A stretch of 64,000 nucleotides of DNA from Pseudomonadota bacterium. Its GTDB lineage: Bacteria > Pseudomonadota > Gammaproteobacteria > Burkholderiales > Burkholderiaceae_E. The notes below the pieces were generated by a model. The model searched no databases and had not been told where the DNA came from. It saw only the letters and a list, made by a program, of their open reading frames with translations. This document shows, piece by piece, positions 29,474-41,565 of the stretch (position 1 is its first letter; every line of letters starts with the position of its first letter). The position numbers and the translations under genes were made by a program. Location: positions 11,944-75,943 of the forward strand of contig JBDLQY010000157.1 in NCBI GenBank assembly GCA_039800325.1, written 5' to 3'.

Positions 29474-29550
29474 CGGGGTGTAGCTTAGCCTGGTAGAGCG
29501 CTACGTTCGGGACGTAGAGGCCGGAGGTTCGAATCCTCTCACCCCGACCA
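29474..29550 (+). tRNA. tRNA-Pro (anticodon CGG)
   Basis: 77 nt, CGGGGTG...CACCCCGACCA. It has a 7-bp acceptor stem, anticodon arm CTACG-TTCGGGA-CGTAG, T-loop TTCGAAT and an encoded CCA. Confidence 0.95.
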
Positions 29551-29561
29551 ATCTGGTCACG

Positions 29562-29632
29562 CCAGACTGCTCTCGCAAACCCACTGATTGCGCACGGCAA
29601 CGGTGGGTTTTGTTTTTTCTGCGCTGAGTAGC
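29562..29632 (+). terminator. tRNA-Pro terminator hairpin (copy A of a triplicated ~70-nt element)
   Basis: aaacccactg-attgcgcacggcaa-cggtgggttt followed by tgtttttt. The loop contains a near-palindrome related to TTGCGCAA. Confidence 0.7.
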
Positions 29633-29746
29633 TAGGTGGTCACTGTGCTACTCAAAGCTCTCGACTGTGGCGTTTCCAACGAAATAAAGTTCAGCTTCAT
29701 CGGCCACGAGCGCATGAATGCAAACAGAAACGCTTTAGTCTGCCGA

Positions 29747-30064
29747 TCAGTAACCCTGAAACAAGAAATCCAGCGCGGCTGTGATCTGGTCCTGATCCTG
29801 AGCCAACGAAGCCACGGGCGCTTTCAGCACCCGCTGGGGTACGGCCCCCATTTTCGGTGTTTCAAGCAGAAAGTCCTCGCCCTTGATCTTGAAAATGGGC
29901 GTCAAGCGAGTTGATAACTTGACCTTCGGGAAGGTGTTAAGACCCCGAAGCGGAACGACCATGCGGCTGTCCAGGCCATCGAGCAGATCGCTCTGCACAT
30001 CCAGCAGGTACGGTGTGGTGGTGGCGTGATTGCCAGGGTTGGCATAGACATCAAAGCGCGCCAT
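29747..30064 (-). CDS. ccdB: Type II toxin CcdB family
   Basis: MARFDVYANPGNHATTTPYLLDVQSDLL...PIFKIKGEDFLL is CcdB-like. The ATG shares 1 nt with the ccdA stop (TGATG). Confidence 0.85.
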   Translation of the reverse strand: MARFDVYANPGNHATTTPYLLDVQSDLLDGLDSRMVVPLRGLNTFPKVKLSTRLTPIFKIKGEDFLLETPKMGAVPQRVLKAPVASLAQDQDQITAALDFLFQGY

Positions 30065-30345
30065 CAGAAGCTTTTCCACTCATCCAGCGGCAGGCCTTCT
30101 GCCTCAATGGTGGCGTTATAGGCCGCAATGAAATCGGCGTGATCCTCGCGCCATTTGCGTTCCTGCTCACGGCGTACGACTTCACGCAAATAGTTGTCGC
30201 AGACCTGGGAGATGTTGATCCCCAGATGCTTTGCTGCGTCCAGGACATCACTACTCAAGCTCAAATTTGTCGCGCGTTTACCTGGCATTGCGGCGCGCAT
30301 GCGTCGAGCGGTTTGTGTGGCAGGCATAGCAATCTTTATGCGCAT
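30064..30345 (-). CDS. ccdA: Type II antitoxin CcdA family (start uncertain: 30345, 30327 or 30288)
   Basis: ...MPGKRATNLSLSSDVLDAAKHLGINISQVCDNYLREVVRREQERKWREDHADFIAAYNATIEAEGLPLDEWKSF is CcdA-like. Confidence 0.8.
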   Translation of the reverse strand: MRIKIAMPATQTARRMRAAMPGKRATNLSLSSDVLDAAKHLGINISQVCDNYLREVVRREQERKWREDHADFIAAYNATIEAEGLPLDEWKSF

Positions 30346-30359
30346 TTAACGATGCGCAT
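30338..30359. promoter_or_regulatory. Two copies of the 8-bp palindrome ATGCGCAT at the 5' end of ccdA (candidate operator)
   Basis: ATGCGCAT at 30338-30345 and 30352-30359, separated by 6 nt. Confidence 0.35.
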
Positions 30360-30406
30360 ATGTTAAACCGCATCGACATCGGAATCCATGGTTGCAGACT
30401 TTTCAG

Positions 30407-30460
30407 CCAGACTGCTCTCGCAAACCCACTGATTGCGCAAGGCAACGGTGGGTTTTTTGT
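30407..30460 (+). repeat. Copy B of the tRNA-terminator element
   Basis: ccagactgctctcgcaaacccactgattgcgcaaggcaacggtgggtttttt is nearly identical to 29562-29618. It abuts the kinase stop codon at 30461-30463. Confidence 0.8.
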
Positions 30461-39195: not shown

Positions 39196-39463
39196 ACAAT
39201 TCATCGATGGTCAGTCATTGATGCCCCGCAGGATCGTTCGGCTCGCGGGGCTTTGTTTTTCGGGGGGCTTCCTTCGGCTGTGGACGGGGTGTGCCAACTC
39301 TGGTTCCATTAAGCGTCCTTTGCTTTGAACGCTGCTGTAGCAAGGTCTGCGGTTCGCTACTCTGATTGGCAGGTATATGGGCTGGGGAGTGGTGTCAGCG
39401 TCAATTTTCTTTACGCTTGGGCCGTGGCTGATTGACAGCTTGGGGCTGGACCGTTTTTGAGCC
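39196..39463 (+). repeat. ~270-nt non-coding repeat R (copy 2) following tRNA copy 3
   Basis: Collinear with 34292-34560, including the hairpin gccccgcaggatcgttcggctcgcggggc plus T-tract. Scattered substitutions and one diverged ~15-nt patch. Confidence 0.85.
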
Positions 39464-39492
39464 GTTGACGTTAATTTGGAGGACTACCACTG

Positions 39493-39813
39493 ATGAAGTC
39501 GCTAAGAAATCCTGATCGCAAGCCCACGCACCCAGGCGCGGTGTTGCGCGAGGATGTATTGCCTGATCTTGGTTGGACTCAGATCGAGCTGGCCAATCGC
39601 CTCATGGTCAGCCGACAAACTGTCTCCCAGTTACTGCACGAAGAGAAGGCAGTTACTGCGGAAATGGCCATACGCATTTCTAGCGCTGTAGGGGGCACAC
39701 CTGAGAGCTGGCTCAACATGCAGCAGGCTGTAGACCTGTGGGACGCTGGCATTAAATTCAAAAACAATCCGGCTTTAGCGCCCTTGTTCCGCCGAGCCTC
39801 GTTAGCGACCTGA
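39493..39813 (+). CDS. HigA-family antitoxin (HTH-XRE), no cognate toxin gene adjacent
   Basis: MKSLRNPDRKPTHPGAVLREDVLPDLGWTQIELANRLMVSRQTVSQLLHEEKAVTAEMAIRIS. No higB-like ORF lies upstream (39464-39492 is too short). Confidence 0.8.
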   Translation: MKSLRNPDRKPTHPGAVLREDVLPDLGWTQIELANRLMVSRQTVSQLLHEEKAVTAEMAIRISSAVGGTPESWLNMQQAVDLWDAGIKFKNNPALAPLFRRASLAT

Positions 39814-39888
39814 ACAACAAGTTTGGGCTCTCTGCGAAAAGCGCTCTGCAATATCGCGCTCGGCACCAGGATGTAGAAAAAACGTCAC
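39802..39888 (-). pseudogene. Truncated RelE/ParE-family toxin remnant (28 codons)
   Basis: GTG overlaps the antitoxin stop (GTGA). My translation is VTFFLHPGAERDIAERFSQRAQTCCSGR*. FxxHPxAExxxxE resembles RelE/ParE N-termini, and the frame then ends inside the convergent higA 3' end. Confidence 0.35.
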
Positions 39889-40112
39889 GCCGAGAGCCGT
39901 GCTCGCAACCGAGTAACGACCTCTGCTCCGGAAACCTCGAACGCGGAACCCGATGCCAATTCAGCTTCTCGTCGGTCTGCTTCTTCTGTCCAGGCCCGCT
40001 CAACTTCGGGATCTGCGTCCAGGCTGACAATCAGCCGCTCGAGCAGGTACGACCGATCGGCCGCTGCGAGTTTGAGGGCTTCGGCTTCAAGAACGTCCAG
40101 ACGGGTGGTCAT
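39885..40112 (-). CDS. Putative addiction-module antitoxin (TIGR02574-like helical antitoxin)
   Basis: MTTRLDVLEAEALKLAAADRSYLLERLIVSLDADPEVERAWTEEADRREAELASGSA. Start taken at 40112; the track start at 40151 is possible. Confidence 0.65.
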   Translation of the reverse strand: MTTRLDVLEAEALKLAAADRSYLLERLIVSLDADPEVERAWTEEADRREAELASGSAFEVSGAEVVTRLRARLSA

Positions 40113-40238
40113 GTCACTTCCAACCTTTAAACAGGATCTGTACTGTGGCACGCCACACTCTACCGAGTGAGCTTAGGCAATCGCTTCGCACCCCGCAAGG
40201 GATAGACGCTTGGCTGGCTCGTGGCCTCAGACCCTCGA

Positions 40239-40502
40239 CTACTGACGCAACTCTTCCCGAAGCACTCTGCGAAGCACCGCGACGGTGAGCGGCTTGCCTT
40301 CGGCGGTCTTACGCTTCGACTGATCCAGGCAGACCCGCAGCGCCGCGTTGATCATCGTCTGGTATCCGCTTCCCTCTTCTTCGGCCTTGGCGCGAAAGTA
40401 TTCAAGCACGTCATCGTCGAGCATGATCGTGATTCGGGTTTTACCCTTCGACGGAATGACAGCGCCGCGCTGAGCCGTTGAGAAATCGTAGTTCTTACGC
40501 AT
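40239..40502 (-). CDS. BrnA family antitoxin (second copy)
   Basis: MRKNYDFSTAQRGAVIPSKGKTRITIMLDDDVLEYFRAKAEEEGSGYQTMINAALR. Confidence 0.75.
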   Translation of the reverse strand: MRKNYDFSTAQRGAVIPSKGKTRITIMLDDDVLEYFRAKAEEEGSGYQTMINAALRVCLDQSKRKTAEGKPLTVAVLRRVLREELRQ

Positions 40503-40752
40503 CGTATTGTTCCGATTCGCCCTTGCTGGCTTTACGGGCCGAGATCAGGCGGGTTTTGTTACCACGAGGTGTGTGGACAACAACGATCAATCGTCCCAGA
40601 GCCTCAAGACTACCAACAAGCAGGCCGCGACCAGCGCTGCCAAACAGTTCTTCCATATTAAGGTCGCCGATCTCTACGGCGAACACATCCGCAATCACGG
40701 TGAAGAGCCCAACAAATCTGTTGAACCGGTACAGGCCGCATTGGCATTCCAA
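40495..40752 (-). CDS. BrnT-like toxin, degenerate N-terminus
   Basis: The C-terminus GRLIVVVHTPRGNKTRLISARKASKGESEQY is BrnT-like. The N-terminal FEWD...KHG positions are replaced (ECQCGLYRFNRFVG). Confidence 0.55.
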   Translation of the reverse strand: MECQCGLYRFNRFVGLFTVIADVFAVEIGDLNMEELFGSAGRGLLVGSLEALGRLIVVVHTPRGNKTRLISARKASKGESEQYDA

Positions 40753-41565
40753 CAGGGCAGGGTCGAGCGTGGTGAGTTGAGTGCTGAGGGTCTTGCCATC
40801 CTCCGCAATCGATTACAAAAAGACATCCTGCCCTTCTTCGGCGCCGTGCCCGTGGACAGGCTCGACTATCAGCAGGTCAGCGACTACATCCAACTGCTCA
40901 GTAAACGAGAACTCAGCAGCGTCACCATCCAGCAGCATCTGGTGGCCGTCAGGAAGATCCTTCACTACGCGGTGGGCGTGGGCCGGCTGAAGGCCCTTCC
41001 TAAGTTCCCACCCATCAAGGTCTCGAGCAAACCGCGCGGCAGTTTCTCGGTGGGCGAGTATCTACTGTTGGTGCGTACTGCCCGACGATTGATGGGACAA
41101 CGCATCGCTGTGGAGGTCACTGCCCGAAGCCGTCGAGCACAGGGCAGTGTAGATCGCTATGGCAGGATCGCTCGGGATCTCCCGTGGCTGATTCGCTTTA
41201 TGGTCAATGCCTTCATCCGACCCAGCGACATCAAGTTCCTCCAGTACAGGCAAGTCACGGTCATTCGAGCCAAGCTCACCTATCTGCGACTGAATCTGCC
41301 CGAGACCAAGCGTCACGACCGACCCATCGTCACGCTACAGGCTGCGGTCGCAGTCTATGAACGGTTGCTGGCTTGGCAACGCAGTCAGGGTCGAGGTCAG
41401 CCGGATGACTACACATCTGTAAACCTGGTGGCGGTTCTTAAGGGCGATGTGAACGGCAACTGGCAGGTTCCGCAGGATACCCCGCCGACGTTGGCAGAGA
41501 ACTATTTTCGAGACCTGTCGACAAAGTTAAACACGCCAGCGGTTCAGTGGGGGATCGTCGGGTAA
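40700..41565 (+). pseudogene. Tyrosine recombinase/integrase fragment, truncated at both ends
   Basis: The frame of track ORF 40507..41565 has a SAM-like core-binding segment (LRNRLQKDILPFFGAVPVDRLDYQQVSDYIQLL...IQQHLVAVRKILHYAV). The start of the catalytic domain, with the first Arg (NAFIRPSDIKFLQY), is present. Homology stops near 41412 (..GQPDDY), and HxxR and the catalytic Tyr are absent. The 5' boundary is approximate. Confidence 0.6.

Follow-up and report, generated by a model that had tools for sequence, protein, structure and literature searches.

A probable decayed tandem array of small integrative elements at a tRNA-Pro(CGG) gene in an uncultured freshwater Burkholderiales bacterium

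Introduction

What has happened to a tRNA gene that is followed, within 12 kb, by two more or less damaged copies of itself? This question is raised by a 64-kb stretch of contig JBDLQY010000157.1, referred to below as the window, from an uncultured freshwater Burkholderiales bacterium. An intact tRNA-Pro(CGG) gene in the window is followed on its 3' side by an array of ~12 kb (29.5-41.4 kb) that contains the two further tRNA copies, a duplicated non-coding block, toxin-antitoxin genes, and the remnant of a tyrosine integrase gene (int). Proline tRNA genes are used as the bacterial attachment site (attB) by rhizobiophage 16-3 and by Streptomyces pSAM2. The original prediction for this locus, made from the sequence alone, was that related elements had integrated repeatedly into one tRNA gene and had then decayed. 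Homology to loci in other genomes (L012, L011, and L031/L033) supports this, and the region very likely consists of small integrative elements in tandem, now decayed, that used tRNA-Pro(CGG) as their attachment (att) site and belonged to one lambda-Int-like integrase family. The tRNA copies divide the array into segment 1 (29551-34216), segment 2 (34292-39138), and segment 3 (39197-41412). Coordinates of all features are collected in Table 1.

The tRNA copies and the block that follows them

What marks the borders of the segments? First, both ARAGORN and Rfam recognize the leftmost copy as the intact tRNA-Pro(CGG) that had been predicted, and the tRNA genes of L011, L012, L031, and L069 match it at 100% identity. 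Second, positions 34217-34291 are an exact 75-nt direct repeat of 29476-29550 (tRNA positions 3-77). ARAGORN calls this second copy as 34215-34291, with the Rfam score down to 54.4 bits. The original prediction was right about its existence and wrong in giving it two 1-nt indels: it differs from the intact tRNA at positions 1 and 2 alone, which amounts to one G fewer in the 5' GGGG run, and the loss of that G breaks acceptor pairs 1-72 and 2-71. Third, the predicted degenerate 3' copy lies at 39139-39196. It keeps the last ~57 nt of the tRNA at 88% identity over 58-60 nt, with a 2-nt deletion in the T-arm, and is probably the oldest att repeat of the array. For tRNA probes of 25-28 nt, 0 matches are expected in shuffled sequence. 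The region is thus bordered as a genomic island would be, with an intact tRNA on one side and a direct repeat of tRNA sequence on the other. The same pieces occur in the same order, at 99.9-100% identity, in L001 (a 20.6-kb locus out of a 74-kb contig), in L002, and in one JGI+NCBI contig. These were assembled independently, from other samples, which rules out a chimeric assembly as the source of the joins.

What is the sequence that follows copies 2 and 3? In both cases a GC hairpin with a T-run (39224-39260 at copy 3) comes first, and then a common block. Self-BLAST aligns 34233-34560 with 39139-39463 at 90.5% identity over 328 nt, in agreement with the prediction that both copies have the same non-coding flank beginning with a terminator hairpin, and confirming that the two blocks are homologous. 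The decisive comparison is with L012, which comes from another organism (a neighboring lactamase-fold gene is only 70% identical to that of the window). There, an intact tRNA-Pro(CGG) runs directly into a 399-nt stretch with 92% identity to window positions 34207-34604, and ~50 nt past this block is the ATG of an intact 431-aa integrase (P0003) that is 90% identical to the integrase fragment of the window. This comparison extends the block beside copy 2 to 34604. A second locus, L020, has the same spacing of tRNA, block, and int as L012, with an integrase that is 78% identical. Since L012 has tRNA, block, and intact int in that order, the block is, by homology, the arm between tRNA and int in a living element family. 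It spans the DNA from the att core to int, comprising the terminator of the tRNA part, the arm, and the int upstream region. An alternative considered for the block, a degraded int N-terminus (suggested by a short similarity in L011), was set aside since the int start of L012 lies ~50 nt beyond the block.

Could the block simply have been copied together with the tRNA, in a local segmental duplication into which unrelated genes were later inserted, with no site-specific integration at all? Blocks A and B, beside copies 2 and 3, respectively, are 90% identical, lie 4.9 kb apart in direct orientation, and are preceded on the 5' side of the tRNA copies by 11-19 nt that are also alike (GTTCGGTCAGA); moreover, the window has no intact integrase. 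What a duplication leaves unexplained is that the block lies between tRNA-Pro and an intact integrase gene in the other chromosomal context of L012, that its 3' half is kept 5' of int genes with no more than 55-78% identity across many organisms (55-70% for L013, L017, L019, and others), that segment 1 has the arm of another subtype (see below), and that the DNA between the copies is unrelated. Duplication is therefore highly improbable, and repeated integration is the better account of the two blocks. The 11-mer GTTCGGTCAGA itself is at 34182-34192 and 39120-39130, 24 and 8 nt 5' of tRNA copies 2 and 3, and ~15/19 nt around it are alike. It may be the trace of a right end that the elements had in common.

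The original prediction offered two roles for the block, attP arm-site DNA or a small RNA. The first is supported by the homology to L012; the second finds no support. Conservation for an RNA function, whether as a small regulatory RNA or as a long trailer cotranscribed 3' of the tRNA, would fit with the block starting directly after the tRNA, with its lack of a conserved open reading frame (ORF), and with a 170-nt contig from two lake metatranscriptome runs that covers 34300-34415 of a related block copy. That contig spans the tRNA-proximal third alone and may be DNA carry-over. Rfam searches of the block, at the gathering threshold and at E<=1, returned nothing beyond the tRNA and one 15-bit chance match, and the minimum free energy of the block is not better than that of shuffled sequences (z=+0.28). 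In addition, the terminator at the 5' end should stop read-through from the tRNA. Four alignable copies of the block exist, and what is conserved across L020, L013, L017, and L019 is a set of short motif islands at fixed distances from the int start codon rather than paired regions, a pattern of protein-binding or promoter DNA. An RNA function is, on this evidence, highly improbable, and the arm assignment is kept. A general promoter scan found no site within block A or block B.

The integrase family and its conserved motif

What kind of integrase does the arm belong to? The integrase fragment of the window has 483 database relatives, of which the listed full-length ones are ~431 aa long, and P0003 on L012 is the closest of these. 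The family is common in lake metagenomes, where one scan gave 546 relatives, and is poorly described by Pfam: PF00589 matches 34/84 members, weakly, and SAM-like domains are found in 55/84. An AlphaFold model built with 84 sequences (pLDDT 79.4) has an N-terminal beta-sheet, a SAM-like core-binding domain, and a catalytic domain. The top Foldseek matches to this model are full-length lambda Int (1z1b and 5j0n), followed by XerA, Cre, Tn1549 Int, and IntI, with a probability of 1.00; the TM-scores are low (0.25-0.44) since the orientation of the domains differs. The family is thus predicted to consist of three-domain, lambda-Int-like tyrosine recombinases. The first His of the HxxR box is a Tyr (Y376) in the family. 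Intact int genes lie 260-440 nt 3' of tRNA-Pro in L012, L020, L031, L033, and L064.

The arm has one sharply conserved sequence, GGTTWGCTAC. It is found at approximately -25 to -72 from the int start in 43/65 distinct loci, often with a second copy at approximately -176 to -230 that forms an inverted GTAGC..GCTAC pair, and there is 1 match in 251 kb of downstream DNA. Together with the conservation of the 3' half of the block, this distribution speaks for a function of the block and against chance conservation. The motif often reads CAGGTTAGCTACAAAT. Sites in the window are at 34448, 34593, 38034, and 39351 (and 29448), and the motif is upstream of int in L012-L065. Block A also has a conserved TTGAC-rich stretch. 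Lambda-Int-like enzymes use arm-type sites. By analogy, the GGTTWGCTAC motifs are candidate arm-type sites for the integrase, and the proximal motif could equally be the -10 region of int. The promoter-like element of the native tRNA-Pro gene (GGTTTGCTACAAT) fits the same motif, and motifs of the GGTTTGCTACAAT type are also present 5' of tRNA-Pro in L011, L033, L070, L073, L076, and L077. The distal inverted motif pair resembles a tRNA D-arm.

The window itself has a single fragment of this integrase. With P0003 as the query, tblastn finds it at 40567-41412 in one frame (88% over aa 53-334) and nowhere else in the 64 kb. True similarity is limited to codons 63-334, such that the start of the N-terminal domain and the C-terminal RHT..Y part are gone. 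The prediction that the integrase is doubly truncated thus holds, as does its right end at 41412; its left end is at 40595 rather than at about 40700. Codons 1-62 are replaced by the 3' end of an opposite-strand brnT gene, which indicates that one deletion cut both brnT and int at ~40594/40595. A lost fourth tRNA copy at this brnT/int junction was also considered and is unneeded, because L100 and L101 (described below) have cargo between arm and int. The last 97 codons (335-431) are absent and include the nearly invariant R379-H380 and Y413; the integrase of the window therefore cannot be active. A tyrosine integrase gene does lie beside the att site, as a remnant here and as intact homologs elsewhere, and the window copy is not functional, having lost aa 1-62 and 335-431. 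Since the 64-kb window has no integrase of the family other than this doubly truncated one, it offers no functional neighbor to mobilize the segments in cis, and the array, to judge from its sequence, can no longer catalyze its own excision.

What remains of each segment

Segment 1 begins with DNA other than the block. A 65-70-nt repeat, T, has three copies (starting at 29561, 30406, and 33424) and is confined to this segment. T1, the copy next to the intact tRNA, aligns with the tRNA-int interval of L031/L033 at 79-82% identity, and both T1 and T3 match these loci between tRNA-Pro and the intact int, including the start of the GTAGC..GCTAC element. The integrase of L031/L033 is 67% identical. 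The original prediction had noted that the flank 3' of copy 1 differs from those of copies 2 and 3; the difference is real, and the flank matches the arm of a second subtype, that of L031/L033. Segment 1 would thus be the remnant of a sister element with that arm. Pfam searches of segment 1 found no int and no mobilization genes. Because perfect 75-nt repeats flank it and it has no integrase, segment 1 can be described as a cis-mobilizable element (CIME; in the sense of PMC5704250). Two of the T units, T2 and T3, separate ccdAB, a sensor kinase gene, and higBA from one another, and both start at the identical nucleotide of the unit. An integron-like reading of the T repeats, as attC sites, was rejected: no attC-type structure and no IntI were found.

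Might segment 1 instead be native chromosome, with T1 as a native terminator and with copy 2 and block A brought in by a rearrangement? The intact tRNA-Pro does have a T-like terminator behind it in L011, as it does in the right-hand chromosomal flank of L069, and segment 1 contains a housekeeping-looking sensor kinase and no integrase. The homology of T1 to L031/L033 goes further than a terminator, however, passing into the GTAGC..GCTAC element. L011 lacks segment 1 at this locus, an exact att repeat of 75 nt bounds the segment, and its content includes two toxin-antitoxin pairs as well as two additional copies of the arm. A native origin is very unlikely given these features, and segment 1 is treated below as part of the array.

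Segment 2 begins with block A and keeps a complete arm, inside which lie a PIN-like toxin gene (DUF5615) and a DUF433 antitoxin gene. A single short contig returned by a look-up with the PIN protein, L100 (1,052 nt, from another sequencing run), is 99.3% identical to window 34434-35281 and lacks the insertion sequence (IS) that interrupts the window at this point. Approximately 110 nt on from the position of the IS, L100 has a second CCAGGTTTGCTACAG and then the start of an int ORF (MDERQAIAAANDTDFHASRHR) that is identical to the N-terminus of an intact integrase, P0005. The PIN/DUF433 module of L100 is thus between two CCAGGTTTGCTACAG copies, 5' of the int start. The contig that encodes P0005, L101, agrees with L100 in the D10 segment, in the 110 nt, and in the motif before int, and differs from it in the DNA to the left of D10. 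Together, the layouts of L100 and L101 place the cargo of the block-A subtype in the arm-to-int interval. D10 has three different left-hand neighbors; beside D10b, in segment 3, there is a further antitoxin gene. The left edge of the D10 segment is thus a recurrent junction, and the interval looks like a recurrent cargo slot just 5' of int. The original prediction had overlooked the toxin-antitoxin cargo inside the arm-to-int interval.

The IS belongs to the IS21 family, with istA (DDE transposase), istB (ATPase), terminal inverted repeats (35276-35304 and 37981-38009), and sub-terminal repeats of 24-25 nt at 37849-37991 (five of them at 37873-37991). The claim that the truncated integrase is the only recombinase of the region fails on this account. 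No target-site duplication was found, as the left flank (..CGCAAGG) and the right flank (CCAGCGAAGG..) differ, and the right flank is unlike the sequence after the insertion point in L100. For these reasons, a deletion adjacent to the IS probably removed the int of segment 2. Immediately to the right of the IS is D9b, a third partial copy of the int-proximal segment of the arm, and the int that should follow is gone. Segment 2 also has brnA/brnT genes and one ORF without an assigned function. As in segment 1, there is no family int and there are no transfer genes between the att repeats, the right one of which has decayed; segments 1 and 2 thus both have the structure of a CIME, with exact repeats in the case of segment 1.

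Segment 3 begins with block B, which is cut ~95 nt short of the int start and is followed by orphan antitoxin genes and the brnT/int fusion. To the right of 41412, neither tRNA probes nor self-BLAST found a terminal att repeat or a native flank. GC content is low (0.51-0.54) around 41.4-42.6 kb. Beyond the array are pairs of genes that resemble type III secretion effectors and chaperones (41838-44006, 45074-47022, and 49912-51405), encoding DUF4049 and a YbjN-like small protein, a CesT-like chaperone and a kinase-like protein, and a SopD-like protein.

Table 1. Features of the tRNA-Pro(CGG) array. Positions are those of the window.
Feature	Position	Strand	Evidence
Promoter-like element of native tRNA-Pro (GGTTTGCTACAAT, extended -10)	29448-29460	+	Sequence reading
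Intact tRNA-Pro(CGG), copy 1	29474-29550	+	ARAGORN; Rfam RF00005 66.7 bits
T1, putative left arm remnant: terminator hairpin and GTAGC..GCTAC element	29561-29678	+	Repeat family D2
ccdB toxin gene	29747-30079	-	Pfam CcdB 5.8e-36
ccdA antitoxin gene	30064-30345	-	Pfam CcdA 3.6e-26
T2, second T terminator/arm start, without tRNA in front	30406-30470	+	Repeat search, self-BLAST
Hybrid sensor kinase, PAS/HisKA/HATPase/REC (cargo)	30461-33100	-	Pfam
T3, third T terminator and arm element start, without tRNA in front	33424-33520	+	Repeat search, self-BLAST
higA	33542-33862	-	Pfam HTH_3
higB	33847-34125	-	Pfam HigB-like_toxin 7.2e-20
tRNA copy 2, pseudo-tRNA, segment 1/2 att junction	34217-34291	+	Repeat search, self-BLAST
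Block copy A, putative int-proximal arm	34292-34604	+	92% identity to L012 8611-9008
Block A terminator hairpin	34319-34357	+	Sequence reading
Block A inverted GTAGC..GGTTCGCTAC element	34434-34457	+	Motif comparison
Block A GGTTTGCTAC motif	34593-34602	+	Motif comparison
DUF5615/PIN-like toxin, cargo within arm	34643-34996	-	Pfam
DUF433 antitoxin, cargo within arm	34993-35217	-	Pfam
D10a, conserved platform segment bordering cargo slot	35245-35277	+	Repeat D10; also L100, L101
IS21-family insertion sequence	35278-38007	-	Pfam, repeats
istB	35393-36208	-	Pfam IstB_IS21 8.5e-56
istA	36221-37783	-	Pfam rve + Mu-transpos_C_2
D9b, third partial copy of int-proximal arm segment; following int gone	38008-38044	+	Repeat D9
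D9b GGTTTGCTAC motif	38034-38043	+	Motif comparison
brnA/CopG antitoxin	38108-38416	-	Pfam
brnT toxin	38397-38702	-	Pfam
tRNA copy 3, decayed 3' part (positions ~20-77)	39139-39196	+	Repeat search, self-BLAST
Block copy B, putative int-proximal arm	39197-39463	+	Self-BLAST, L012 comparison
Block B GTAGC..GGTTCGCTAC element	39337-39360	+	Motif comparison
Orphan HigA-like helix-turn-helix (HTH) gene	39493-39813	+	Pfam
Unstab_antitox gene	39885-40151	-	Pfam
D10b	40168-40200	.	D10 repeat
brnA-like antitoxin	40239-40502	-	Pfam
brnT remnant, ~33 C-terminal codons only	up to 40594	-	Junction inferred
Integrase remnant, codons 63-334 of 431	40595-41412	+	tblastn P0003; blastn L012 9242-10059

Occupancy of the site in relatives

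Is the site occupied in the same way in related genomes? It is not. The original prediction had named uniform occupancy among close relatives as a sign against repeated integration; the comparison found that occupancy differs in L011, L064, and L069. One of these is L011, a Burkholderiaceae metagenome-assembled genome (MAG) from Lake Mendota with ~84% nucleotide identity in the flanking genes and the same His_Phos/tRNA-Pro junction. Only brnTA lies between its two tRNA copies. The order in L011 is the tRNA, a T-like terminator, a brnA/brnT pair with 75% identity to window 38151-38732, the second tRNA copy in degenerate form (positions 3-77), ~130 nt that are distantly similar to the block, and a remnant of the int N-terminus (ILASVTPIANYPTKLRIFKTNASRYWQVR); homology with the window picks up again at 45073. 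The second tRNA copy of L011 and copy 3 of the window have in common a 2-nt deletion and CGCTC in the T-arm, which suggests one old integration before the two species split. Segments 1 and 2 would then be either additions in the lineage of the window or losses in L011. In L064 and L069, where the left flank is homologous to window 15.1-18.9 kb, other elements of the family are found at tRNA-Pro.

There are several further observations on the surroundings of the site. In L011, the int remnant is followed by a gene for a 481-aa HTH-Fic/DOC protein (11793-13238, minus strand) that is not in the window. A dienelactone hydrolase gene to the right of the array (44010-44954) is present in L010 and is not at that position in L011. 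L010, a MAG with a 91% identical His_Phos flank, loses homology exactly at the promoter motif (L010 1100-1110 = window 29448); no tRNA-Pro follows and the downstream gene order differs, which could be a real rearrangement or a MAG artefact. Finally, many int contigs (L020-L099) begin 300-600 nt 5' of int, near the tRNA or its fragment, consistent with assembly breaks at a repeated or polymorphic att site.

Two arrangements of the attachment site

How does the integrase family treat its target? The arrangement around int was surveyed in 88 loci of the family (L013-L099 and others), and a tRNA or tRNA fragment is near int in 45. Two layouts are seen among these. In the first, at 11 loci, a full tRNA-Pro(CGG) or tRNA-Met(CAT) with its terminator is 260-440 nt 5' of int; in one of the 11, L095, the distal partial repeat corresponds to tRNA positions 10-77. 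In the second layout (34/45 loci), int is preceded by no more than a tRNA fragment, 17-36 nt long and starting at position 1 in every case. This fragment layout also occurs for both tRNA-Pro(CGG) and tRNA-Met(CAT). On the long contigs that have it (L017/L018 and L069/L071), the island ends, on the side away from int, with an intact tRNA that has an island-borne -10-like sequence before it (for example, L017 9630-9650 and 14309-14385; L069 7680-7697 and 11718-11794).

The two layouts can be explained by two designs of element. In the proposed 3'-restoring design, the element brings tRNA positions ~3/10-77 and a terminator, and comes to sit 3' of an intact tRNA. In the proposed 5'-restoring design, the element brings a promoter and tRNA positions 1-18, and an 18-nt stub with the host promoter is left before int. 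The window belongs to the 3'-restoring layout, together with L012, L031, L064, and L095. Because the two types of repeat overlap at tRNA positions ~10-18, the crossover is likely to be in the D-arm. There is about an even chance that the family as a whole recombines in the D-arm (~10-18) with two mirror-image attP designs and with an arm-int slot that captures toxin-antitoxin modules. Such geometry has precedent: for some Klebsiella islands, a preprint reports a D-loop sublocation and an integration upstream of a tRNA gene (arg2), which parallels the fragment layout (bioRxiv 10.1101/2020.11.02.365908). The occurrence of both layouts in one integrase family would seem unusual.

Discussion

How could the array have arisen? 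An intact element would consist, in order, of the tRNA (whole, or as much of it as the element brings along), a terminator, a ~300-nt arm with GGTTWGCTAC motifs, int, and cargo. Segment 1 would retain only the start of the second-subtype arm (T1, T2, and T3), together with ccdAB, the sensor kinase gene, and higBA. Segment 2 would retain the complete arm of the other subtype with the PIN/DUF433 module inside it, having lost int beside IS21, with brnTA at its end. Segment 3 would retain its arm, orphan antitoxin genes, and an int that was fused to the brnT remnant by a deletion and broken a second time at codon 334. The repeats, the homology with intact elements, the truncations, and the differing occupancy in a related species are observed. 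What we infer is the order of these events, that toxin-antitoxin addiction retained the segments, and that the motifs serve as arm sites and/or int promoter.

Five points weigh against the accretion of integrative elements as described here. First, neither T2 nor T3 is preceded by a tRNA remnant, which simple accretion does not predict. Second, the difference between the window and L011 can be read as gain or as loss. Third, contigs from the population of the window all have one layout, and no polymorphism in excision or occupancy is seen within the species. Fourth, no complete, two-ended element was recovered for either tRNA-Pro subtype, and the right-end sequence and the typical cargo are thus unseen. 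Fifth, the right edge of the array is undefined between 41412 and ~44000.

Why does the locus matter? It is a clean example of how tRNA genes collect and fossilize mobile DNA, and it is unusually easy to read, since all repeats in these 12 kb correspond to parts of intact elements at other loci. The remnants are nearly all toxin-antitoxin modules, which fits with addiction modules holding dead islands in place. The integrase family, with its poor coverage by Pfam and its sharply conserved 10-nt arm motif, appears to spare the tRNA in two opposite ways, such that the choice of tRNA site and the evolution of att sites become testable in one enzyme family.

How does the array compare to known systems? 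Tandem accretion, decay to int-less remnants, and an abundance of toxin-antitoxin modules at tRNA genes are already well known. First, the accretion/CIME model is established, with ICESt1/ICESt3-related islands of Streptococcus thermophilus as an example (PMC5704250; also PMC5812530), and the array follows the same path: integration, decay to an int-less, att-flanked remnant, and a new integration at one of its att sites give rise to a tandem array. Unlike those islands, the array has no conjugation or mobilization genes, and its elements are a few kilobases long and nearly all toxin-antitoxin; it also has no functional partner and no present cis-mobilization, and its host is an uncultured freshwater betaproteobacterium. 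Second, the asn tDNA islands of Klebsiella pneumoniae (PMC4891358) similarly reuse one tRNA with related integrases and have tRNA-derived direct repeats as their limits. In the array, however, the repeat is almost the whole tRNA (3-77), the cargo is toxin-antitoxin instead of virulence genes, and members of one integrase family show both downstream and upstream layouts. Third, the predicted three-domain fold and the repeated short motifs in the att arm beside int resemble lambda Int, from which the family differs in its ~12% sequence identity, its weak PF00589 match, and the Tyr in place of the first His of the HxxR box. Fourth, islands with dusA-specific integrases insert into the 5' end of the gene that they target and bring a substitute for that end with them (PMC4482086). 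Members of the family with a 5' tRNA fragment likewise appear to supply a promoter and tRNA positions 1-18, although their target is a tRNA rather than a protein-coding gene and their integrase belongs to another family; the elements of the window itself are of the opposite, 3'-restoring kind.

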